Part shown: piece by piece, positions 3,583-47,633 of the stretch
Numbering within the stretch: the first letter of the stretch is position 1
Layout of the letters: every line of letters starts with the position of its first letter
Source of the DNA: Planctomycetota bacterium
Lineage (GTDB): Bacteria; Planctomycetota; GCA-002687715; CAIWVZ01
Direction: 5' to 3'
DNA length: 64,000 bases
Assembly (NCBI GenBank): GCA_044222185.1
Contig: JBGANV010000004.1
Coordinates: 320,001-384,000 of the forward strand
Notes under the pieces: generated by a model
Databases searched by the model: none
Told to the model about the DNA's origin: nothing
Seen by the model: the letters and a program-made list of their open reading frames with translations, nothing else
Translations under genes and position numbers: made by a program

Positions 3583-4551
3583 ATGAAGAGATCGCTGCGC
3601 ACCTCCGGCATGCTTTGGATCGCCGGGATCACCTTGTTGGTTGGCCAGGTTCACGCTCACGGGTTCGTCGGACCTCCTGGCGGGTCGACGCCGTTCGTCC
3701 CGGTGGGGGGCGGAAACGTCGGGCAGACGGGGCCCGTCGGCGGCGTCACGCCGCCGGCTCCAGGCCAGGGGGGAGGCACCCTGCCAGGTCGCCAGCTGAC
3801 CGGCGGCGGCGACCCGAGAGCTGCCACGGGTGGCACGTTCGCGGGCGGCGCGGCTGCCCGAGGCGGTGGCGGCCGCGGCACCGGCGGAACGACGGGCGCG
3901 GCGAAGCCGAAGAGCTTCGACGCGAAGTGGAAGGAACGCCTGCATGGCGCGTGGAAGGCCGCGTTCCTCCCGGTGATCCACCGCGACGGGTACGCCTCCA
4001 AGGTTGCCACGATCGACGAGGCCATGACGCTCGCTCCTGCGGAAGGCGGGTGGGCACGCGATCGTCGTCCGGCCGTCGTCATCACCTACGATTCGATGAA
4101 CCCCGAGCACGTCCGCGCGCTCGCCATGCTCGAGTCCGATGACCGGGTGCGCTCTGCGACTCACTTCTTCGACTGCTTCAAGGTCGACGTCGGCGGCGCG
4201 ACGCAGGAGAAGTCGCTGGACGTCAAGCTCTCGACGTATCGCGCCGACGGAACGTTCATCGAGACCGTCGCCGGGCAGCGCAAGCTGTCGGCGGCCTTCG
4301 ATCTGATGGAGCGCGCATGGAAGGCCGAGTCGAAGACCGAGCTGACCGATCGGCTTCCGAAGATGACGTCGCTGCTGAACGACCGCGCCCAGGTCCAAGA
4401 CTTCATCGCCGGGTGGGACGCCGCGATCGTCTGCCCGGATTGCGGTCATGAACGCGCCGACGCCATCGAGAACGTCGAGCGGGGCAAAGTCGGTCTTCGC
4501 GAGTGTGAAAAGCAGGTCGAGGCGCTCCGCGCCATCGCGTCTGCGAAGTGA
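3583..4551 (+). CDS. Secreted hypothetical protein A (signal peptide, Gly/Pro/Thr-rich linker, thioredoxin-like core, CPDCG motif)
   Basis: ATG 3583 after GGGAG; signal peptide ending VHA; clear paralog at 49676..50647. Confidence 0.8.
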   Translation: MKRSLRTSGMLWIAGITLLVGQVHAHGFVGPPGGSTPFVPVGGGNVGQTGPVGGVTPPAPGQGGGTLPGRQLTGGGDPRAATGGTFAGGAAARGGGGRGTGGTTGAAKPKSFDAKWKERLHGAWKAAFLPVIHRDGYASKVATIDEAMTLAPAEGGWARDRRPAVVITYDSMNPEHVRALAMLESDDRVRSATHFFDCFKVDVGGATQEKSLDVKLSTYRADGTFIETVAGQRKLSAAFDLMERAWKAESKTELTDRLPKMTSLLNDRAQVQDFIAGWDAAIVCPDCGHERADAIENVERGKVGLRECEKQVEALRAIASAK

Positions 4552-4615
4552 TGGACGACTGGGTGTGGCGGGCCACGTGCGCGCCACACCGTCTGGGTGC
4601 AAAAGGCGGGTAGCG

Positions 4616-5818
4616 ATGGATCTCTCCTTCAGTGCGCGGTGCTGTGTTCGTGTCGTCCTGTCTGCCGTCGCGGCGACCCTGCTCGCGACGGCCCAGACGC
4701 AGCCCGCCCGGGTCCCCGACGGGACATCGCGTTTCGCACCACCTCCCATTCGAGCCGAAGGCGGCGCCGTCATCACGGCCTCCGCCGTCCTCTGCCGCCG
4801 CTGTGTGGATGAGAAGCTCCAGGCGCAGGGCTGTTGGACGCTGCCGGCGCGGCGAACGTTGCTTGGCCAGGACCCGATCGTGGTCGTCCCCTGGCTGACG
4901 CACCTCTTCGGCAAGGCCCCGATCGTGCTGCTGACGCCGCGCGTGACGCTCGTCGTCTGCTCGGACGGTGGCACCGTCGACGAGTTGTCTCCGCGCGAGG
5001 CCGAGATCCTGAAGGCATGGTTCCCGAAGAACGCGTCGCCGGCGCGCACCCTCGACGGACACCAGTACGCGCACCTCCTGGCCGAGCGCCTCATGGCCAT
5101 CGAAGCGCAGGTCGGCGAGATCCTGGATCTTGGTCCCGACGGTCGGGCCAAACCCGACTCGGGGCCCACGTCACCGTTCGCGAGCGATGCTTCCGAGTTG
5201 TTCGTGTTCTCGACGAAAGCGGCTTACGAGGCCTTCGTCTCCCACACGTTCGAAGCCGGCACCTGGCCCACGACGGCCGTGATGCTCGATTCGGGACCGA
5301 CGGCTGCGCTCCTCATCGAGGATCCGAAGTCGGTCTCCGATCGGCGCCGCTTCGCGTTCACGGCGACGAATCTCCTCGTCCGGGCGCTCTCTCGTGCGGG
5401 TGATGGGCTCCAGGCCTGGCTTCGCATCGGCCTTTCGCACGTCATCGAACAGCAGGTTCCGGGGAAGGTGGCGGCTCCGGGCGATTCGCAGACGCTCCCG
5501 CCGGACATGAAATCGCCACCGGACTGGCACGTGTTCACCCGCGAGTTGGCCAACTCGGGAAAGAGCGGCGTGCTCTCGGCACTGGCCGCATCGACCGAAC
5601 GCGGACTCTCGCTGCGTAGCCGGCTTCAGGCGGCGAGCGTGGTCCGGTGGCTGATCGAGTCGGACCCGGCCAGGTTCGGCGCCTTCATGCGCCGGCTGAT
5701 GTACGAGATGCCGACGACGCCTGCGGCGAAGGCTCTCCTGAACGCGTCACGTGCAGGCCTCGGGAAGGACACGGTGACGCTCGAGAGCGACTGGAAGCAG
5801 GCGATCCTCGCGAAGTAG
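4616..5818 (+). CDS. Secreted hypothetical protein B (degenerate peptidase-MA/DUF1570-like, CxxC)
   Basis: Signal-like N-terminus, CRRC, HQYAH, WLRIGLS, C-terminal LESDW; paralog at 48236..49480. Confidence 0.75.
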   Translation: MDLSFSARCCVRVVLSAVAATLLATAQTQPARVPDGTSRFAPPPIRAEGGAVITASAVLCRRCVDEKLQAQGCWTLPARRTLLGQDPIVVVPWLTHLFGKAPIVLLTPRVTLVVCSDGGTVDELSPREAEILKAWFPKNASPARTLDGHQYAHLLAERLMAIEAQVGEILDLGPDGRAKPDSGPTSPFASDASELFVFSTKAAYEAFVSHTFEAGTWPTTAVMLDSGPTAALLIEDPKSVSDRRRFAFTATNLLVRALSRAGDGLQAWLRIGLSHVIEQQVPGKVAAPGDSQTLPPDMKSPPDWHVFTRELANSGKSGVLSALAASTERGLSLRSRLQAASVVRWLIESDPARFGAFMRRLMYEMPTTPAAKALLNASRAGLGKDTVTLESDWKQAILAK

Positions 5819-5822
5819 GAGC

Positions 5823-5851
5823 ACCGTCCGCCGCGGAGGGCGGCGGACGGT
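5823..5851. terminator. Perfect 12-bp hairpin between convergent genes
   Basis: ACCGTCCGCCGC-ggagg-GCGGCGGACGGT; no U-tract. Confidence 0.55.
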
Positions 5852-5863
5852 CGGGGGCATGGA

Positions 5864-6496
5864 TCAGCCGGCGACGCGCTTGATCGTGCAGCCTTCCGGC
5901 TTCGTGCTCGACGTCGTGAGCGGCTTGCCAGCGAGCAGGAGTTCGAGCGCGTCCTTCACGTACTCCTTGGTCACCTTGTCGCTCTTCCACGCGTCATCGG
6001 TGAGCGCGCCCACGTACACGACCTTCATGTCCTTCGTGTCGATGACGAAGAGGTGCGGCGTGACGAGCGCGTTGAACACGTCGGCGATCTTGTTGTCGGC
6101 ATCGAGCAGGACCGGGATCGCGATGTTCTGCTTCTTGACGTACGCCTTGGTCTTCTCGACGTCCGCCTCGGCCTTGTTCTCCGCCTTGTTGGCGGCGATG
6201 TGGACGAACTGCACGCCCTTGGTCGAGTAGTCCGTGTTCAGCTTGCCCAGGCGGGGCTCGGCGCCCTTGGCGGCCGGGCACTCCCGCGACCAGAAGTCGA
6301 TCACGATGTACTTCTTGTCGGTCGCCAGGCTCTTCAGCGACACGTCCTTGCCGTCGAGGTTCTTCAACGTGAAGTCGGCGACGACGGACCCGACGACGTA
6401 GCCCTTCGCCTTGGGCTCTTCCTTCTTCTCCTGCGCGATGGCAGCGAGCGGCAAACCGAGCGCGACGATCAGCATCAGACTGCGTTTCATGGTCAT
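5864..6496 (-). CDS. Secreted redoxin / AhpC-TSA thioredoxin-family protein
   Basis: DFTLKNLDGKDVSL, FWSRECP, TPHLFVID, YVGALTD and terminal GCTIKR; signal peptide. Confidence 0.88.
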   Translation of the reverse strand: MTMKRSLMLIVALGLPLAAIAQEKKEEPKAKGYVVGSVVADFTLKNLDGKDVSLKSLATDKKYIVIDFWSRECPAAKGAEPRLGKLNTDYSTKGVQFVHIAANKAENKAEADVEKTKAYVKKQNIAIPVLLDADNKIADVFNALVTPHLFVIDTKDMKVVYVGALTDDAWKSDKVTKEYVKDALELLLAGKPLTTSSTKPEGCTIKRVAG

Positions 6497-37747: not shown

Positions 37748-39187
37748 TCAATTGTCCACGCCGGTGGCGACGGGCAGTTCGGGCTTCGCCGCCCATTCCT
37801 TCCACGAGCCGTCGTACCACCGCACGTTCGTGTGTCCGAGCAGGAAGCGCAACGTGAAGTACGTCTCGCTCGCCTGATGACCCGTGCGGCAGGAGACGAT
37901 CGCCGTCTTCTCCGGCGTCAGTCCAAGCGCCTCGTATCCCGCGCGCAGTTGCTCCTTCGGCCGCCAGAACAGGCCGTCGCCCACCCTCGCCAAATCCGCT
38001 GCGACCGGCCGATTGCGCGCGCCCGGAATGTGGCCGCCGCGCGGCTCGTTCACCGTTGCGCCGGAGAACTGGTCCTGCGGACGGCTGTCGATGATCAATG
38101 CACTCCCCGTCGTGCTCGCCGCCTTCACGTCGTCGAGCGAGGCCTTGACGAAGTTCGTCGCCGCGCGCGGCGTGTAGACCTTCGCCTTTGGAGTCGTCGC
38201 GTCCTTGACGACGGCGCCTCCAGCTCCCGTCCACGCGGCGAGGCCGCCTTCGAGGATCGCGACCTTCTCGTGGCCCAGACTCAGGAGCGCCAGCGCGAAG
38301 TGCGTCGCGTCCTGCATCTTCTCCGTGGAGTAGGCGACGACTTCCGTGTCGGCGTCGATCCCGAGCGCCCCGAGCTTCAGCGCGAGCGCCGCGGGATCGA
38401 GGAGTTCGTCGGCGACGCCGTCTCGCGTTCCGCGCACGAGGCTGATGGGAGCGTGGACGGCTCCGGCGATGTGACCGGCAGCGAAGTCCTCCGCCTTGTC
38501 GCGCGTGTCGACGACCACGACTTGCCCGCTGCGTTTCGCCACCCATTCAGCCGAGACGATGGTCGGTGTGGTCAGCCGTTCGGGATCCGTCGCATAGCGC
38601 TGAATCGTCGGCTGCGAGGTGGCCTGTGGTTTCGGCGCCTCCTGTGGACCGAGGATCGCCGCGCGCAACGCCGCGAATCGCGGCAGCGCGGCGGCGGCGT
38701 CCGCCTCGTTGGTGATGCCGCGCAGCGACGGCGGAGTCAGCTCGTCGCGTTTGAATCCCGCGAGGCCGTCCTCGAGCACGCGCACGTCGCGCCGCCCGCG
38801 TTGCGCGAGCGCGACCCACGCCTGTGCCGGGTGCGTCATGCCTTCGGAGACGAGCACGACGAGCGATCCGTGGAATCCCGCGAGCAACGCCCGTCCCTCA
38901 TCGCCGAGCAGCGCCGGAAGATCCAGGTTGTGCGATCGCGGGAGATGGAACGCTGCGAAGTCCGCCGCGGGCCGCACGTCGACGACGAGCACGTCGTCTT
39001 GGTTCGCGAGCCATCGGTCGGCAAGTTCGCGCGTCGAGATGTGATCGGCGCCGGTCTCGACGTCACGGGCCCACGAGAGGTCGGCGACGTTCGGCGACCC
39101 CGGGTGCCAGCGCACGAGGAGCGCGACCGCGACGGTCAACGCCGTGGCACCGAGGGCCGCCAGTTGCGTCTTGAGAGAGATGAGCAT
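37748..39187 (-). CDS. Membrane-anchored three-domain rhodanese / sulfurtransferase
   Basis: DVRPAADF..FHLP, GHIAGA, GHIPGA, active-site CRTGHQAS, YDGSWKEW. Confidence 0.92.
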   Translation of the reverse strand: MLISLKTQLAALGATALTVAVALLVRWHPGSPNVADLSWARDVETGADHISTRELADRWLANQDDVLVVDVRPAADFAAFHLPRSHNLDLPALLGDEGRALLAGFHGSLVVLVSEGMTHPAQAWVALAQRGRRDVRVLEDGLAGFKRDELTPPSLRGITNEADAAAALPRFAALRAAILGPQEAPKPQATSQPTIQRYATDPERLTTPTIVSAEWVAKRSGQVVVVDTRDKAEDFAAGHIAGAVHAPISLVRGTRDGVADELLDPAALALKLGALGIDADTEVVAYSTEKMQDATHFALALLSLGHEKVAILEGGLAAWTGAGGAVVKDATTPKAKVYTPRAATNFVKASLDDVKAASTTGSALIIDSRPQDQFSGATVNEPRGGHIPGARNRPVAADLARVGDGLFWRPKEQLRAGYEALGLTPEKTAIVSCRTGHQASETYFTLRFLLGHTNVRWYDGSWKEWAAKPELPVATGVDN

Positions 39188-39202
39188 GGAACGATCTCCT
39201 GT

Positions 39203-39775
39203 TCAGTCGGCGGTCCGGACGGTGAGCCGGCCCGTGATCGAGAAAGCGATGAGCGCCAGGGCGACGACCCCGGCGACGACGGCGGTGGGCGCGAGCCCGA
39301 ACACCTGGGGGAGGGTGAGAACGCCGCAGGCGCCGGCGGATGCGAACGATCCGATGGCAGGCCAGGCGGCGGCGAACGCCAGGCTCCCGGCCCCGGCGCC
39401 GAGCAGGAACGCGAGCGCGTCGACCTTGCCCGATGCGGCGCCGACGAGCGCGGTTCCCGGACACCAGCCGCCGGTGACGAATCCGACGCCGAACACGAGC
39501 CCGCCGACGATCTGCGGCCAGAGGAACGTCTCGAGGCGCGTCACGCGATCGTCCGGGACGAGGCCCGTGAGCGAGAGCACGTGCATGCCGACGGCCGCGG
39601 TCACGATGGCGGAGAACATCACCTTCAGCACGGCGAAATCGCGGCGGTAGAAGATCGCCGTGAGCTTGCGGCTCGAGCCGAAGCCCGCGCGCTCGAGCCA
39701 GAAGCCGAAGAAGATGCCGACGACGAGCGCCAGGCCGCGGGCCGAGTCCGTCGCGAGGAAATCGCCGCCGTTCAT
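39203..39775 (-). CDS. YeeE/YedE sulfur (thiosulfate) transporter family protein
   Basis: FGFWLERAGFG, GGLVFGVGF..GGWCPGT. Confidence 0.9.
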   Translation of the reverse strand: MNGGDFLATDSARGLALVVGIFFGFWLERAGFGSSRKLTAIFYRRDFAVLKVMFSAIVTAAVGMHVLSLTGLVPDDRVTRLETFLWPQIVGGLVFGVGFVTGGWCPGTALVGAASGKVDALAFLLGAGAGSLAFAAAWPAIGSFASAGACGVLTLPQVFGLAPTAVVAGVVALALIAFSITGRLTVRTAD

Positions 39776-40329
39776 GACCACTCCTTCCTCACGAGCGGTG
39801 CCGCGGCGAACCCGCCGGCGAACACCGCGAACATGAACGCCCAACTGCCCGCGAGGAGGAGCGACCCGCCGGTCAATGCCTGGCCCGACGTGCATCCACC
39901 CGCGAGTCGGCTCGCAAAGCCCACGATGCCGCCGCCGATCACGGCGAGGGCGAGGCGGCGAAGACGCGATGCCGTGGGACCCGCTTCGATCGCAGGCCGC
40001 ACGCGCCGAGCCGCGAGGGCCGAGATGAATCCACCGAGGATCGTGCCCAGCGCCATGAACACGAGGTAGTGCGAGAGCGGGGATCCACCGGACGCGAACC
40101 ACTCCGACAGATACCCGTTCTGCTCGACGAGCTGCGGCGACGCCGCATGCGCTCCGACGGCCGCGACGCGCGCGAGACCGCCGGAGGCGCCCAGCCCCGC
40201 GCCGAGGACGACGAAGGAGAGGACCAGCGTCAAGCCGATGCCGATCCCGGCGAGGTAGGGGTTCCAGTACGTCACCGGTGCCGGTCGGCTCGGCGGCGTG
40301 ATGCGGAGTTCTGAGTCGGTTCCGTGCAT
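39772..40329 (-). CDS. YeeE/YedE sulfur (thiosulfate) transporter family protein
   Basis: YWNPYLAG, GLGASG, RLAGGCTSGQALTG. Confidence 0.9.
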   Translation of the reverse strand: MHGTDSELRITPPSRPAPVTYWNPYLAGIGIGLTLVLSFVVLGAGLGASGGLARVAAVGAHAASPQLVEQNGYLSEWFASGGSPLSHYLVFMALGTILGGFISALAARRVRPAIEAGPTASRLRRLALAVIGGGIVGFASRLAGGCTSGQALTGGSLLLAGSWAFMFAVFAGGFAAAPLVRKEWS

Positions 40330-40341
40330 CGTGCGTCTCCT

Positions 40342-40815
40342 TCAGCAGCCCGAGCTTCGAGGTTTCACCGGCTGCGATGCGGTCGCGGCTTTGGATGACG
40401 GCCGTGTGTCGGCGGGAGTGGACCGCAGTTCGATCTCGTTCCACCACCGCAGCGTGCCTCCGGCGAGGACGCGCACGTCTTGGGTGCCGGCTTGCGCGGT
40501 CGCGAGCGCCGCGCCCGCAACGGCCCACGCCGCCGTGCCATCGCGATCGACGACCACGACCTTGGCTCCCGCGCCGGCCGCGGCGATGGATGTGGCCACG
40601 TCGCCGGGAGCGAGGTTCTTCGCGCCGGGAATGTGGAATTCCGCGAACTGCCACGCCGGGCGGATGTCGAGGACGAGCCAGCCCGAAGCCTTGGATTTGA
40701 GTTCGTTCCACAACGCCGTCGGCTCGATGGCTGGCGGAATCCCCGACGTGGACGTGGCGAAGAGCCCGAGCGAAGTTGCCGTCACGAACGAAGCGAGAGC
40801 CCAGCGCAACTGCAT
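40342..40815 (-). CDS. Exported rhodanese-like protein with C-terminal GC
   Basis: Signal peptide; LDIRPAWQFAEFHIPGA, VLAGG..RW; ends SSGC. Confidence 0.85.
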   Translation of the reverse strand: MQLRWALASFVTATSLGLFATSTSGIPPAIEPTALWNELKSKASGWLVLDIRPAWQFAEFHIPGAKNLAPGDVATSIAAAGAGAKVVVVDRDGTAAWAVAGAALATAQAGTQDVRVLAGGTLRWWNEIELRSTPADTRPSSKAATASQPVKPRSSGC

Positions 40816-41217: not shown

Positions 41218-41304
41218 TCGACATCCGCCGCACCGGGCTCTCGCCGTTCTTGGGCGAAATTCCAAGTCTCTGACGCGCTGATCGCGTCCCCGGAGAGAGT
41301 CCAC

Positions 41305-41709
41305 GTGAATCGAAAGTCCCGATGGGGGAAGGATCCGTCCCCCGGGCCCGACGACGGGCCGTCCCAGGATCCGCTCGTATCCAAGTTCTTCCATCCCGCG
41401 CCGAAGGCCGCCTTCGAGCGCAAGGCTCGCCAGCTTTGCGAGGAAGTCCGTCGCACCCTGGAGTTCGCGCTCGATTGGGAGTGTGACGACGACCTGCTCG
41501 CCGAGCTTTGGATCGCCGCCGTCGATCCGGCCCCCGACGCCTCACGCTTGCGCGTGTCGATCGAGATTCCGCCCGGCCGCGATCCCGTGGCCGTGCTCGA
41601 ACGCCTCGATCGCATGCGGCCGCGTCTGCGGGCGGAGGTCGCGAGAGCCGTGACGCGCAAGCGCGCGCCCGACTTCTTCTTCGCCGTGGGAAGCGGAGGT
41701 GACGCATGA
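41305..41709 (+). CDS. RbfA-like (ribosome-binding factor A paralog, KH fold)
   Basis: RKARQLCEEVRRTL...D.LL..LWIAAVDPAPDASRLRVSI...LRAEVARAVTRKRAPDFFF follows the RbfA pattern; not in the infB-truB context. Confidence 0.75.
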   Translation: MNRKSRWGKDPSPGPDDGPSQDPLVSKFFHPAPKAAFERKARQLCEEVRRTLEFALDWECDDDLLAELWIAAVDPAPDASRLRVSIEIPPGRDPVAVLERLDRMRPRLRAEVARAVTRKRAPDFFFAVGSGGDA

Positions 41710-42848
41710 CTGCGCCGCACGGAGCGAACGTGCGCGTGTGGGCGGCTCATCGCCTCGCAGCGGACGTGCGCGGCATGATCGACCGCGTCGCCGCGTCGGC
41801 AGACGTCGTTCACGTCGCGGTGATGCCCGACGTCCACCTCGCCGAGGAGGTGTGCGTCGGGTGCGTCGTCGCCACCACGAACACGCTGTACCCGCAGGCC
41901 GTCGGCGGCGACATCGGGTGCGGCATGGCGGCGATGGCGCTCGAGGCGTCCGCCGACGACGTCGACGAGGTCCGCGCCGCGCGGATCCTCGACCGATGGG
42001 GCGCCGAGATCCCCGCGATCCGGCGTGCTCGCGCGAATCACGTCGCCATCCCCGACTCCGTGCTCGCGATGCCGCTCAGTCGTAGTGGCCTCGAGACGTG
42101 CCGAGACCGCGACGGCACCGTCGAGTTCGCCACGCTCGGGCGCGGGAACCACTTCATCGAGTTGCAGGCGGGCGACGACGATCGGCTCTGGCTGATGGTT
42201 CACAGTGGCTCACGGGCGATCGGGCCCGAGGTCCGCAATCATCACCTCTGGATCGCGCGCGCCGCAGGTGCGGCGGCGTACCTCGCAGGGCTCGGTGCGG
42301 ACCGCGACGACGGCCGTGACTATCTGGCCGACGTAGCCTTCGCCATCGCCTACGCGGAGGCGAGCCGGCGAGCCATGCTCGCGCGCGCCGCCGCGAGCGT
42401 CGCGGACGTCCTGCGATGCGCGATCGACGAGGCCTCGGTGATCACCTGCGTCCACAACTCCGTGCGGCGCGAGGTCCACGACGGACGCGCGTCGTGGGTG
42501 CATCGCAAGGGCGCTGCGCCCGCGGCCCACGGCGAGCCGGGCATCATCCCGGGATCCATGGGCGCCGAGAGCTTTCACGTCGTCGGACGTGGATGCTCGG
42601 CTGCGCTCGCCTCCAGTTCGCACGGAGCGGGCCGCGTGATGGCACGCGGCGACGCTCGCCGTCTCATCTCGCGTCGGCGACTCGAGCGCGAGATGGAGGG
42701 CGTGTGGTTCGACCATCGCCTCGCCGCGCGTCTCGTGGATGAAGCGCCCTCGGCCTACAAGGACATCGGCGAAGTGATGCGCGCACAGGCCGACCTCGTG
42801 CGCATCGAGCGGCGGCTGCGACCGCTCATCAGCTACAAGGGCGCGTGA
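41706..42848 (+). CDS. rtcB: RtcB family RNA 3'-phosphate/5'-OH ligase
   Basis: MPDVH, GDIGCG, GRGNHFIE, VHSGSR, HN, HRKGA, PGSMG, SHGAGR, EAPSAYK; ATGA overlap with the upstream gene. Confidence 0.95.
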   Translation: MTAPHGANVRVWAAHRLAADVRGMIDRVAASADVVHVAVMPDVHLAEEVCVGCVVATTNTLYPQAVGGDIGCGMAAMALEASADDVDEVRAARILDRWGAEIPAIRRARANHVAIPDSVLAMPLSRSGLETCRDRDGTVEFATLGRGNHFIELQAGDDDRLWLMVHSGSRAIGPEVRNHHLWIARAAGAAAYLAGLGADRDDGRDYLADVAFAIAYAEASRRAMLARAAASVADVLRCAIDEASVITCVHNSVRREVHDGRASWVHRKGAAPAAHGEPGIIPGSMGAESFHVVGRGCSAALASSSHGAGRVMARGDARRLISRRRLEREMEGVWFDHRLAARLVDEAPSAYKDIGEVMRAQADLVRIERRLRPLISYKGA

Positions 42849-42926: not shown

Positions 42927-43004
42927 GCGGCGCGCCGCGCTTTCCGATGATCCTGCCGAACGCCGCGCGCGCTCGTGCCAGCGGCCTGGAAAGCGAGGTT
43001 CGTC

Positions 43005-45359
43005 ATGTCGGTGCTGTCGAAGTTCACGATCGGGCGAGTCCTGGTCTTCACGGTGGTCGTCGGGTTCTCGGTGCTGCTCTTCGGTGGGTGGCAGCTCTTC
43101 CGCAACCGGGCGCCGATCCCGGGCCGGGTCACGAGCGAAGCCGGCGAGGTCGTGTTCACCCACGATCAGATCCTGGGCGGCCAGGCCGTCTACCAGAAGT
43201 ACGGACTCATGGACTGGGGCTCGGTCCTCGGACACGGCACGTACTTCGGGCCGGACTTCACCGCCGAACTCCTCCACAAGCGCGTGGAGCTCCTGCGCGC
43301 GGCCGAGGCGACGGCGCGCGGCGGCAAGGCCTACTCTGATCTGGATGCGAGCGCGCGTGCGGCCATCGACGCCGCCGTGAAGGCGCAGATCAAGCTCAAC
43401 CGCTACGACGAAGCTCGTGACACGCTTATCCTCGCACCGAGCGACGTGACCGCGTTCCGCACGATCGAGGCGGACGTCCGGCGCCGCTTCACGCAAGGCG
43501 AACCGGGTCGCGCCATGCCCGCGGGAGTGGTGAGCGAATCCCACATGCCCGCCGAGCGCGCGTGGGTCGCGAGCGGTGATCAGATCCACCAGCTCGCCTC
43601 GTTCTTCTGGTGGACGTCGTGGATCGCGGGCACGAAGCGCCCCGACCGTGACTCCACCTACACGAACAACTGGCCTTTCGACGAGGACGCGGGCAACACG
43701 CTCTCGGCCGGCGCCATCACGTGGAGCGGAGTCTCGGTGGCGGGCTTGCTCCTCCTCCTGCCCATCGTCCTGCTCGTGTGGTTCCGTGGCCGCTACATGA
43801 TGGAGGACGCGTATCCGGAAGGGCAGTTCCCGCGGCAGGAACTCTCGTGGCTGCCGGTCTTCCCGAGCCAGCGCAAGACGATCAAGTACTTCGTGACCGC
43901 GGGCGCGCTCTTCCTCGTGCAGACGCTGCTCGGCGCCTACATGGCGCACTACTACGTGGAGGATGGTTTCTACGGCGTCGACCTCTCGAGCATCCTGCCG
44001 TTCAACGTGGCGAAGACGTGGCACCTCCAGCTCGCCATCTTCTGGATCGCGACGGCCTGGCTCGGCATGGGCATCTACGTGGCGCCGCTGATCGGCGGCC
44101 GCGAGCCGAAGAAGCAGGGACTCCTCGTCGATCTGCTCTATGGCGCGCTCGTGTTCGTCGCCGTGGGCTCGCTCGCCGGTGAGTGGCTCGGCGTGAAGGG
44201 CCGCCTCGGCAATGCGTGGTGGTGGCTTGGACACTCGGGTTGGGAACTCGTGGAGCTGGGCAAGGTGTGGCAGATCCTCCTCGCCGTCGGCTTCGGCCTG
44301 TGGCTCGCGATCATCTGGCGCGGCGTCCGCGCGGCGATCCAGGGCAACAACGACCGGCCGGGCCTGGTCAAGCTGTTCATGGTGAGCGCCGTCGCGATCC
44401 CGTCCATGTTCGCGGCGAGCTTCCTCATCACGCCGGGCAGCCACCTGACCATGGCGGACTACTGGCGTTGGTGGGTGATCCACCTGTGGGTCGAAGGCAT
44501 GTTCGAAGTGTTCGCCGTCGTCGCCCTGGGGCTCATCATGGTCCACATGGGACTCGTCACCGCATCGTCGACCGCGCGTGCGCTCAAGTTCCAGCTCACG
44601 CTGCTCCTCGGCAGCGGGATCGTCGGCATCGGACACCACTACTACTGGATCGGAACGAACGACTTCTGGGTCGCCATGGGAAGCGTGTTCAGCGCCCTCG
44701 AGGTGGTGCCGCTGACGCTGCTCGCCGTGGAGGCGGCCGAACAGTGGATGGTGATCAAGCGCGGCGGGCGTGAGTTCCCGTACAAGCACGCGTTCGGGTT
44801 CCTCGTCGCCGTGGCGTTCTGGAATCTCTTCGGCGCCGGCGTGCTCGGGTTCTTCATCAACCTGCCCGTCGTCAACTACTTCGAGCACGGATCGATGCTG
44901 ACGGCCAATCACGGCCACGGCGCGACGATGGGCGTCTTCGGCATGCTGGCGATCGCGCTCGCGCTGTGGTGCTCGCGCAACGTCGTGAAGGAGGATCGCT
45001 GGACGAACCGGCTGTTCACCACGAGCCTGTGGGGCCTCAACATCGGCCTCTTCGGCATGGTGGTGATGACGCTCACGCCGGTCGGCGTGATGCAGATGCT
45101 CGAGTCGATCCGCCACGGGTTCTGGTCGGCGCGCACGCTGGAGTTCTACCGGCAGGACACCGTGAACACGCTCTTGTGGCTGCGCATGATCCCCGACTCG
45201 ATCTTCATCGGCTTCGGCGTGATCCCGCTCCTGATCGGGCTCGTGCGCGGGCTCCTGAACCTCCGCCCCGCGACGCCCATCGAGTCCGAGATCGATCGCC
45301 GCGTGCGGCGCATCGGCGTGACCGAACCCGAAGTCGAGCTCGTCGGCCAGACTCGCTGA
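43005..45359 (+). CDS. norB: Quinol-dependent nitric oxide reductase (qNOR)
   Basis: GSVLGHGTYFGPDFTA, YTNNWP, HLQLAIFWIATAW, WWVIHLWVEGMFEVF, GIGHHYYWIG, FSALEVVPL, NHGHGA. Confidence 0.95.
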   Translation: MSVLSKFTIGRVLVFTVVVGFSVLLFGGWQLFRNRAPIPGRVTSEAGEVVFTHDQILGGQAVYQKYGLMDWGSVLGHGTYFGPDFTAELLHKRVELLRAAEATARGGKAYSDLDASARAAIDAAVKAQIKLNRYDEARDTLILAPSDVTAFRTIEADVRRRFTQGEPGRAMPAGVVSESHMPAERAWVASGDQIHQLASFFWWTSWIAGTKRPDRDSTYTNNWPFDEDAGNTLSAGAITWSGVSVAGLLLLLPIVLLVWFRGRYMMEDAYPEGQFPRQELSWLPVFPSQRKTIKYFVTAGALFLVQTLLGAYMAHYYVEDGFYGVDLSSILPFNVAKTWHLQLAIFWIATAWLGMGIYVAPLIGGREPKKQGLLVDLLYGALVFVAVGSLAGEWLGVKGRLGNAWWWLGHSGWELVELGKVWQILLAVGFGLWLAIIWRGVRAAIQGNNDRPGLVKLFMVSAVAIPSMFAASFLITPGSHLTMADYWRWWVIHLWVEGMFEVFAVVALGLIMVHMGLVTASSTARALKFQLTLLLGSGIVGIGHHYYWIGTNDFWVAMGSVFSALEVVPLTLLAVEAAEQWMVIKRGGREFPYKHAFGFLVAVAFWNLFGAGVLGFFINLPVVNYFEHGSMLTANHGHGATMGVFGMLAIALALWCSRNVVKEDRWTNRLFTTSLWGLNIGLFGMVVMTLTPVGVMQMLESIRHGFWSARTLEFYRQDTVNTLLWLRMIPDSIFIGFGVIPLLIGLVRGLLNLRPATPIESEIDRRVRRIGVTEPEVELVGQTR

Positions 45360-45374
45360 CGGACGCGCCGCGCG

Positions 45375-47633
45375 TCAGCGCTTGCGACTCTCCGCGCCTT
45401 GCGTGTCGCCACGCAGGGCGCGGTTCACTTGGGCGAGCAGCTCATCGGCGCGAGACACGGGCTCGAAGCAGAGCGTGTCGATGCAGACGGTGGCGCGGAC
45501 GCGGTCGGTGGGGACATCGTCCCGCGTCAACACGACGTGGGGTGAGTAGCCGACCGTGATCGGGGCCCGCAGCAATCGCGCGACGGCGATGGGGCCCCCG
45601 AGTGCCACGCGCGCCACGGGCCGGGCCACGAGGTCCCAGGCGATGAGGCCGTACGTGGAATCCACGGGTGACTTCGCCACGTCGACCGACACGGCGTCGA
45701 GCGCGCGACGGGCCGCATCGAGATCCGCCGGCTCGCCGCTGATGCGCGCCAGCCGGGCGAGGGCCACGTTCATCTGCGAGATCCCCGAAGGCCATGCTCC
45801 GTCGTGGACTTCGCGCGTGCGGAAGATGAGGTCGGGCTCGACCGAGTCGAAGAACCCGCCGTCCGACGCGCCGAACCGTGCCCGCGTCGCCGTCGTGAGG
45901 CTTCGCGCTCGCTCGAGCCAGCCCGGATCGAGCGTGAGTTCGTGGAGGTCGAGGAACGCCTCGATCATCGCCGCCTGATCACTCAGCTCGCCCGCGGGGC
46001 TGGCATCGCCGACCGAGAGCCGACGCGCGTAGAGACCGTCCGACCGCAGCGATTTCGACGTCAGCACGCGGACGATCTCGACGGCCGCGTCGCGATAGCG
46101 GACGTCGTTCAGTGCAAGCGACGCGCGCGCGAGCGCGGACGCGAACCATGCGTTCCACCCCGTGATCACGTGATCGACCCGCGCCGGTTGCGGGCGCACG
46201 CGTCGGGCCGCGAGGAGCTTCCCGCGGGCTTCGCGGAGCGCGCTCTCGACGGCGTCGAGCCCGAGGCCCAGGGTCTTCGCGACTTCGGCGGGCGCTCGGC
46301 GCTCCGCGATCGTCTCCTCACCCGATCCCGCGGGCGGGCGATCGAACCCGGCCCAGCTCGTGAACGCCGCGAGTTCGGTGCCCGACAAGACGGCCGCGAC
46401 CTGCTCGCGCGTCCACAAGTACGTTGCGCCCTCGACTCCGTCCGTCGTCGCGTCGAACGCCGCGATGAATCCACCACTGGCCGCGCGCATGTCGCGCAGG
46501 GTGAAATCCAGCACCTCGCGCGCCAGGGATGTGTACGTTTCGTCGCCAGTCGCCTGCGACAGCTCGATCAGGACGCGGGCGTTCAGCGCCTGGTCGTAGA
46601 GCATCTTCTCGAAATGCGGCACCTGCCAGGCGCGGTCGGTCGAATAGCGGTGAAAGCCGCCGGCCAGATGATCGCGGATGCCTCCGCGCGCCATGGCGTC
46701 GTATTGGTGCCGGACGGCGTCGAGTGGGGCGCTCACGTCGCGAGATCTGGCCCACTGACGCAACAGGAGGAGCGACAGGGTCGGCGACGGGAACTTGGGG
46801 GCGAGTCCGAACCCGCCCTTTTCGTCCTCGAGATCCTTCAGGCGATCGGCCGCGACGCGCATGGGGTCGGAGGGCCGCGACGTCGTCTCCCTGCGCTCGC
46901 CCCAGACCCCCAGGACTTCCAGTGCGCGGCGCTGTTCTGGATCGAGCTGGTCGAGCGGACGCGACGGCTTGCTTGCGGCCGCGCCCGGCACGGCCTTGGC
47001 GCGGGCGTCGAGCTCATCGAACGGGAGGTTGGCGAGCGTCATCACGCGCGCCAGCCCGTCGGCTGCGTCGGTCAACGTCTGCCGCTTTTCCTTCCACGCT
47101 TCTGCGACTGAATGGACGAGCGTGCGGAAGCCGCGTTGGTTCGGTCCGTCATCGGGCGGGAAATAGGTCCCCGCAAAGAACGGCTTGCGGTCCGGTGTCA
47201 GGAAGAGGTTCAGCGGCCAGCCGCCCTCGCCGATGGCGCGCACGGCCGCTTGCATGTAGACGCGGTCGACGTCGGGGCGCTCCTCGCGATCGACCTTGAT
47301 CGAGACGAACGACGCGTTCAGCTCGGCGGCGATCGCAACGTCCTCGAACGACTCCCGCTCCATCACGTGGCACCAATGGCAGGACGCGTACCCGATGGAG
47401 AGGAAGATCGGCTTCTGCTCGCGGACGGCACGGGCGAAGGCCTCTTCGCCCCACGGGTACCAGTTCACCGGGTTGTGACCGTGCTGGCGAAGGTAAGGGC
47501 TCGCTTCCTTCGCGAGACGGTTCTCGTAGGCCGGCCGGGTCGATGTCGGGGTCGACTCCTGCGCTGCGCCGATCGTCGCGAGGGCGATCGAAACGATCGC
47601 AACCAGACTGCGCCGCTCAACTCCGCGGCGCAA
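45375..47633 (-). CDS. YyaL/SSP411-family thioredoxin domain-containing protein (DUF255)
   Basis: [53 protein letters not shown]; N-terminal signal peptide. Confidence 0.93.

Follow-up and report, generated by a model that had tools for sequence, protein, structure and literature searches.

Among the described systems that join the RNA ligase RtcB to a partner, the PrfH-RtcB2 pair of Escherichia coli ATCC 25922 and Nissle 1917 is a two-gene operon with a 4-nucleotide (nt) overlap, encoding a short RtcB (~380 aa) and a translation-factor paralogue that binds the small ribosomal subunit near the decoding region. Passages of PMC9304027 describe RtcB2 as repairing free 30S subunits cut between A1493 and G1494 and not tRNAs, and RtcB1 as doing the opposite; in the parts of the literature covered here, PrfH-RtcB2 is the only dedicated ribosome-repair system that we found demonstrated. 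The E. coli RtcB1-type ligase belongs to an RtcR-RtcB-RtcA operon, and in the archease-RtcB systems rtcB directly follows a small accessory gene. To our knowledge, the targeting of RtcB to particular RNAs is largely obscure beyond archease, RtcR/RtcA, Ro/Y-RNA and PrfH. Here we analyse two overlapping genes, coding for an RbfA-like protein and an RtcB, in a 64,000-nt stretch of DNA (hereafter the window) from a Planctomycetota bacterium (assembly GCA_044222185.1, contig JBGANV010000004.1, positions 320,001 to 384,000, forward strand). The conserved partnership of the RbfA-like gene with a dedicated RtcB clade is well supported, and the pair has the look of a so far undescribed module for the repair of RNA, possibly of the ribosome.

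The pair resembles PrfH-RtcB2 in its two-gene layout with a 4-nt overlap, its short RtcB and its translation-factor paralogue, but here an RbfA-type KH protein takes the place of the release-factor homologue, and the order is reversed, with the partner gene first. The RtcR-RtcB-RtcA operon holds the nearest RtcB clade (34% identity, same catalytic residues), yet neither RtcR, RtcA nor a sigma-54-like promoter was found upstream of the window pair, and the ~40%-identical Rtc-type RtcBs in its relatives carry RtcR and RtcA without an RbfA-like gene. The archease-RtcB layout likewise has its small accessory gene directly before rtcB, but the accessory fold is unrelated, and the archease-linked RtcB is of the long type and lies far from the clade in a quick tree.

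The RbfA-like gene (41305..41709, + strand; GTG start, 134 aa) was taken from the list of open reading frames (ORFs) and is preceded, 5 nt upstream of the GTG, by a Shine-Dalgarno-like sequence, GGAGAGAG (41292..41299, + strand), read directly from the DNA. The N-terminus MNR(K/S)SR is common to the window protein and a 69%-identical homologue (P0002). The rtcB gene (41706..42848, + strand; ATG start) encodes a 380-aa RtcB 3'-phosphate/5'-OH RNA ligase of a distinct short-RtcB clade, and its Shine-Dalgarno sequence GGAGG (41695..41699, + strand) is located within the 3' end of the RbfA-like gene, 6 nt ahead of the ATG at 41706. At the junction, GGAGGTGACGCATGACT, the ATG of rtcB (41706-41708) overlaps the TGA of the RbfA-like gene (41707-41709). 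An earlier reading of the window, made from its letters alone (the sequence-only reading), had proposed that this ATGA (41706..41709, + strand) couples the translation of the two genes, and both ORFs and the stop/start overlap are indeed seen in the sequence. Of the 64 loci that allowed both genes to be positioned, 63 have an overlap (48 of -4 nt, 13 of -8 and 2 of -11; the sole remaining locus has a gap of +11 nt), as counted with a script that takes the start codon closest to the stop and is biased to overlaps, although the hidden Markov model (HMM) alignment nonetheless begins there, at model positions 2-5.

The linkage was surveyed from both sides. The forward survey applied the family profile of the RbfA-like protein to GTDB genomes, one for each species; 159 relatives were confirmed and the best 80 kept, most of them from Planctomycetota, with others from Myxococcota (Sorangium, other Polyangiaceae, Sandaracinus and other Myxococcales), two from Acidobacteriota and one from a Parabeggiatoa. 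An RtcB lies just downstream on the same strand in 50 of these 80 loci (tblastn; 45-57% identical to the window RtcB). The reverse survey searched metagenomes with an alignment of 24 clade members as the query, and the scores of the 80 RtcB loci kept were bimodal with the clade HMM. All 15 full-length clade RtcBs (444-600 bits) have an RbfA-like ORF (56-168 bits) directly upstream, as has the N-terminal fragment of a clade RtcB in locus L141, while four further clade-like fragments begin at the contig edge, so that their upstream gene is not assessable. Of the non-clade loci, 59 out of 60 are without an upstream RbfA-like gene; the exception, L173 (331 bits with the clade HMM), shows a 24-bit partial RbfA-like match at the contig edge. 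A second sample comprised 151 genomes drawn evenly from the phylum of the window, Planctomycetota, with a strong RbfA-like match in 20 and an RtcB at E <= 1e-105 in 10. Nine of these RtcBs score 503-569 bits, and all nine are, by their coordinates, immediately downstream of the RbfA-like match. The tenth (G093; L193:2609-4122), at 385.8 bits with the clade model, abuts an upstream ORF of 116 aa that has no Pfam match and that hhalign aligns with the RbfA-like family profile (probability 86.5%, E 4.5e-6) as a divergent member. Conserved linkage to rtcB, the lack of which would by the sequence-only reading have refuted its proposal, is borne out in both directions, and adjacency and overlap are maintained at 36-57% protein identity across four phyla. 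Clustering of the neighbours of the 50 linked loci revealed no third conserved gene, only synteny within genera (9 Sorangium and 8 related Planctomycetota loci).

The relationship of the small protein to RbfA is remote at the level of family models. RBFA is the only family that it matches in Pfam and NCBIfam, sub-threshold in both: Pfam RBFA (PF02033) aligns with residues 41-127 at 25.1 bits (E 2.3e-5), below the 34.7-bit cut-off, and the NCBIfam RbfA equivalog (NF001802) gives 25.8 bits against a cut-off of 142. The proposed match to RBFA is thus recovered, but not at the curated level, which some relatives do exceed (e.g. 38.3, 39.7 and 42.0 bits). A PDB search with a profile of 84 relatives reported RbfA structures as all of the top 7 matches (best: 1jos, E 1.6e-5), with the whole KH domain aligned. 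The AlphaFold2 model obtained from the 84-relative alignment has a mean predicted local distance difference test (pLDDT) value of 83.4, rising above 90 at residues about 41-130; it consists of a low-confidence N-terminal extension of ~38 residues and, behind it, a KH domain of type II (residues about 34-128; helices H34-58 and H94-115, strands E69-75, E81-87 and E123-128). A Foldseek search of the PDB with this model returned bacterial RbfA at ranks 1-8 (E 1.7e-6 to 2.6e-4; target-normalised template modelling (TM) score 0.73-0.82), followed by mitochondrial RBFA; the best match was 2dyj_B (E 1.7e-6, root-mean-square deviation (rmsd) 2.1 A over 91 columns, target-normalised TM 0.79). As modelled, the small protein is of the RbfA KH fold, in agreement with the sequence-only reading.

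The predicted structure has the alpha-beta-beta-alpha-alpha-beta KH fold of canonical RbfA (rmsd 2.1-2.5 A to solved RbfAs), together with the Asp in the beta1/beta2 loop, the Arg past the kink and the P-x-L-x-F strand. Unlike canonical RbfA, the window protein scores below the family cut-off, stands outside the infB context and is without Phe78, but has an N-terminal extension and the QLC, PAPDAS and RKRAP motifs. The last three belong to family-specific invariant motifs, RK..QLC in helix 1 and PAPDAS in the beta1/beta2 loop, and to a further family motif, LR.EVA.AI.RKRAP.L.F, that spans helix 3, the alpha3/beta3 loop (RKRAP) and strand 3; the beta1/beta2 and alpha3/beta3 loops are among the most conserved elements of the family. 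Among 1.84 billion, a 15-sequence profile picked out 2,162 cluster representatives at E <= 1e-3, of which 1,599 reach E <= 1e-10, the counts being of clusters at 50% identity. It could be argued that there is no partnership, the small ORF being a degenerate rbfA duplicate that is carried along or aids the translation of rtcB, and the position of the window protein below the Pfam and NCBIfam cut-offs is what such a remnant might show. We regard this as very improbable: the family has ~1,600 clusters (50% identity, E <= 1e-10) with invariant motifs, the AlphaFold2 model of the window protein is confident, adjacency and overlap are kept at the sequence divergence and over the phyla given above, and the clade RtcB is never seen without an RbfA-like gene.

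The N-terminal extension carries, in many members, a motif of its own within the first 40 residues, approximately LC(A/G)E.H.DDG.DP(R/K).FF (e.g. L027, L066, L070, L008 and L014). It brings a second cysteine ahead of the KH domain and is present in RtcB-linked and unlinked members.

The downstream protein matches Pfam RtcB (PF01139) at 260.9 bits (cut-off 27). Its residues D69, C72, H149, H166, H250 and H306 align with D75, C78, H168, H185, H281 and H337 of E. coli RtcB, of which H337 is the guanylylation site, and all six are invariant across 24 clade members. The catalytic motifs are intact, as had been noted from the sequence, and the protein is predicted to be an active Mn/GTP-dependent ligase. 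The roles of the five metal ligands follow passages of PMC8051266. Unlike in PrfH-RtcB2, the ligase is not an RtcB2: it misses both RtcB2 equivalog models (180.6 bits against 407 for NF007153 and 132.4 against 271.8 for TIGR03073), at which the E. coli RtcB2 adjoining prfH in Nissle 1917 scores 641 and 618 bits, respectively. The RbfA-linked RtcBs as a group reach 168-201 bits on NF007153 and 173-228 bits on the extein of an RtcB1-like model, and with such low scores on both they are of neither the RtcB2 nor the RtcB1-like NCBIfam type. In a quick IQ-TREE phylogeny of 59 RtcBs (midpoint root, long branches flagged), all 48 RbfA-linked RtcBs are on one side of a single branch (Shimodaira-Hasegawa-like approximate likelihood ratio test (SH-aLRT) support 99, stem 1.2 changes per site), and E. 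coli RtcB2 falls outside this clade. Members of the E. coli RtcB1 group in relatives of the window adjoin RtcR, RtcA or Ro60.

The pair as an RNA-repair module acting on the small ribosomal subunit is a reasonable hypothesis, which we put forward tentatively, at somewhat less than an even chance. The clade RtcB would seal 2',3'-cyclic-phosphate (or 3'-phosphate) ends to 5'-OH ends, and the RbfA-like KH protein would be its dedicated RNA-targeting partner, supplied in fixed proportion via the stop/start overlap. The likeliest target would be the small ribosomal subunit: by analogy with canonical RbfA, which clamps the 3'-terminal tail of 16S rRNA, the paralogue may grip the 16S 3' minor domain on the free 30S once a nuclease has cut close to the decoding centre or to the h44/h45 region, and may hold the cut-off 3' piece in position until RtcB has rejoined it. 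The physical interaction of the two proteins, the binding to 30S and the identity of the break are what we infer here. According to passages of PMC8177701, canonical RbfA uses its KH face to bind nucleotides 1530-1536 of 16S rRNA within the mRNA exit channel; its Phe78 is stacked on A1534-C1535, and its beta1/beta2 and alpha3/beta3 loops are inserted as a wedge between h28 and the 3' end of 16S rRNA. Since the loops used by canonical RbfA are the most conserved of the RbfA-like family, binding of the paralogue to the same 16S 3' minor domain is supported. The repair of cut 30S subunits by RtcB2 is one precedent; another, at this end of the molecule, is given in PMC5416887, in which E. coli RtcB religates the MazF-cut 16S 3' end. 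A peptide-release step like that of PrfH would not be expected, because RbfA binds the free 30S and not a stalled 70S.

Several results weigh against this hypothesis. At the AxG kink the window protein has M104-R105-P106, and R107 occupies the position of E. coli Phe78, so that neither the AxG motif nor the Phe is kept. Among 103 family members, the position of the AxG Gly is held by Gly or Pro in 89 (G 62, P 27), and that of Phe78 by R in 37, W in 15, Y in 12, H in 9 and F in 5; a residue capable of stacking (R, Y, W, H or F) is found there in 78. The KH domain of the window protein is neutral (isoelectric point (pI) 6.5, net charge 0), compared with pI 9.6 for the canonical RbfA of the same genome; the median pI of RtcB-linked RbfA-like members is 8.5. 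In the quick tree the RbfA-linked RtcB clade has the E. coli RtcB1 group as its sister (support 93), and pairwise the window RtcB shows 34% identity to E. coli RtcB1 (196 bits), as against 27% to RtcB2 (106 bits); the nearest kin of the ligase would thus be enzymes that repair tRNA and not nicked 30S. There is also no ribotoxin gene, mobile element or defence-system context at the pair, and neither protein matches the PADLOC defence-system models. No relative was found in viral contigs. The genome has no match to a colicin E3-type cytotoxic domain, but the control genomes gave none either, which makes this negative uninformative. The sequence-only reading had cast the paralogue as a 30S damage sensor in place of PrfH, and several of these results tell against so simple an analogy.

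The same data invite another interpretation, in which the clade RtcB works on non-ribosomal RNA (tRNA, mRNA or other) and the KH protein serves it either as an archease-like activator or as a general adaptor for RNA ends or substrates; the descent of the small protein from RbfA would then be of historical significance only. The sister relationship to the tRNA-repairing RtcB1 of the RtcR-RtcA type agrees with this, as do the lack of conservation of Phe78 and the non-basic KH domain of the window protein; KH domains bind many single-stranded RNAs, the other RtcB of the same genome is itself directly preceded by archease, which makes an upstream small helper a known layout, and passages of PMC8177701 mention unspecific binding near the AxG motif by nuclear magnetic resonance (NMR). 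On the other hand, the fold search yields RbfA specifically and not other KH proteins, the loops that contact the 30S in canonical RbfA are the most conserved, and the small protein has no similarity to archease. We consider this interpretation unlikely, though it deserves serious attention.

Further points on the opposing side come from RbfA-like genes that occur alone, for the linkage is obligate only from the ligase side. No downstream RtcB is present in 30 of the 80 loci of the forward survey, 28 of them assessable (2 have <300 base pairs (bp) downstream). In the phylum sample the clade RtcB is lacking in 11 of the 20 carrier genomes. A search of five genomes with unlinked copies gave only RtcBs of 34-40% identity. 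As the ligase is lacking in about half of the carriers, the RbfA-like protein should have a role independent of the clade RtcB. In a FastTree phylogeny of 103 RbfA-like proteins the RtcB-linked members are scattered over the whole tree with unlinked ones interspersed, four of the rows marked as without RtcB (L018, L038, L041 and L056) being short or broken loci and not true absences; the starred branches force at least 6 changes, e.g. the unlinked L008 and L010 stand beside the linked L009. A search for a motif that would tell linked from unlinked members found none. Since the RtcB clade is monophyletic and has no unlinked members, the pattern is most simply read as an ancestral pair from which the ligase was lost repeatedly. 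The Acidobacteriota sequences group with Tepidisphaeraceae in both the RtcB and the RbfA-like trees, which fits transfer as a pair.

The flanks of the 30 loci without RtcB were analysed by scanning 145 of 147 chosen ORFs against Pfam, two oversized ORFs being left out. In 11 of them, from Singulisphaera and other Isosphaeraceae-type genomes, the RbfA-like gene is tail to tail with an rtcA gene just downstream (L020, L022, L025, L028, L033, L036, L048, L049, L072, L075 and L084, at about 4400-5900 in each). This places another RNA-end-healing gene beside the RbfA-like gene and counts for a function in repair, but the arrangement is convergent and restricted to one lineage, so that it amounts to about one event, which diminishes its value for the hypothesis. 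Neither infB nor truB was found beside any of the 30 loci, whose other neighbours are miscellaneous. Along with rtcA, the Isosphaeraceae-type loci usually have a type-I phosphodiesterase gene upstream, and some have a HIT-family gene further on.

The persistence of the RbfA-like gene alone in about half of the carriers would also be explained if its product served as an alternative factor in 30S assembly or maturation, for instance under stress, in the cold or during dormancy, with RtcB serving rRNA processing or quality control in biogenesis. Large-genome Planctomycetota and Myxococcota often retain paralogous housekeeping factors, and canonical RbfA is described as a late 30S maturation factor (passages of PMC8177701). 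The distribution, however, is patchy (20/151 genomes) and the pair has apparently been transferred horizontally, both of which fit an accessory system better than core biogenesis, and no other assembly genes are found at the loci. We know of no bacterial rRNA maturation step that requires RtcB, and judge this explanation quite unlikely. A bolder version of the 30S-repair hypothesis would accommodate the solitary genes: the paralogue may be a damage-handling 30S factor that grips the severed 16S 3' piece and presents the break to its private RtcB, and that after loss of the ligase still protects or re-folds nicked or immature 30S on its own. We regard this version as doubtful, though worth stating.

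If this bolder version is true, the pair would be a second, independently evolved system for repair of the decoding region beside PrfH-RtcB2, spread by horizontal transfer via Planctomycetota, Myxococcota, Acidobacteriota and some Gammaproteobacteria. Even if the ribosome is not the target, a new accessory factor of RtcB is defined. What is new is a monophyletic RtcB clade never met without an RbfA-type partner, and a large partner family (~1,600 clusters) for which the Pfam and NCBIfam matches include no dedicated curated model. The pair also provides a way into the RNA repair of Planctomycetota and Myxococcota, which is experimentally almost uncharted. No published description of an RbfA-RtcB pair was found in the passages of full-text literature and of an RtcB review (2023) that were searched, a search outside which the neighbourhood survey of Burroughs & Aravind 2016 falls.

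In the genome of the window (7.08 Mb in 16 contigs, 93.8% complete), a canonical rbfA (92.4 bits) stands on contig 1, directly after infB, so that the RbfA-like gene is not the only rbfA there; the expectation of a separate canonical copy, and of a pair away from the infB-rbfA-truB locus, thus proved right. All five other carrier genomes that were examined likewise have an RBFA match above the cut-off (60.5-96.9 bits). At the canonical locus (L001, G000:C1:1479561-1482872) the gene after rbfA codes for a family-9 glycosyltransferase (heptosyltransferase-like) and not for truB. A long RtcB (549.6 bits with Pfam RtcB) is encoded on contig 6 with the archease gene directly upstream, and this is the only archease in the genome. 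At the given completeness, no RTC match (rtcA) was found genome-wide, nor any release_prfH match at the cut-off. Scans of the surroundings of the pair for Rfam families, promoters and terminators gave nothing above chance; the sigma-54 consensus motif matched less often than expected by chance, with no match on the + strand upstream of the pair.

A few RbfA-like genes stand apart from the rest. In locus L032 a single ORF of 531 aa (L032:3941-5536) looked like a gene fusion, but this was rejected: the C-terminal motif of the family runs on in another frame, which indicates a frameshift in that assembly rather than a genuine fusion. No RbfA-like protein of greater length or in fused form was found when such forms were searched for, although this is weak evidence. 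In L056 (4360-4716) the RtcB downstream of the RbfA-like gene matches only residues 6-96 and 330-380 of the query, in two close pieces, and is probably an internally deleted, decaying copy. Three RbfA-like proteins of 97-99 aa (L186, L187 and L195, from genomes G155, G088 and G173), all from one family of Planctomycetota, are without the N-terminal extension; their genes are positioned between those of a tetratricopeptide repeat (TPR) protein and of SUF/Fe-S assembly, with no RNA-repair gene near.

Annotation of the neighbours of the pair in the window shows genes unrelated to it, namely those for rhodaneses and sulphur transport on one side and those of a NorB-like oxidase and a DUF255 protein on the other, and the earlier statement that no rtcA, rtcR, archease or prfH adjoins it holds. 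Upstream, the region 37748-40815 (- strand) is a sulphur-handling cluster that encodes a triple-rhodanese protein of 478 aa, a single rhodanese and, in two half-size ORFs of 185 and 184 aa (matching profile positions 2-148 and 175-309), sulphur-transport proteins of the YeeE/YedE type. Directly after rtcB, a quinol-type NorB-like nitric oxide reductase with a cytochrome-c-like domain and a COX1 domain is encoded at 42975-45359 (+ strand), convergent with the gene of the DUF255 thioredoxin-domain protein at 45375-47633 (- strand).

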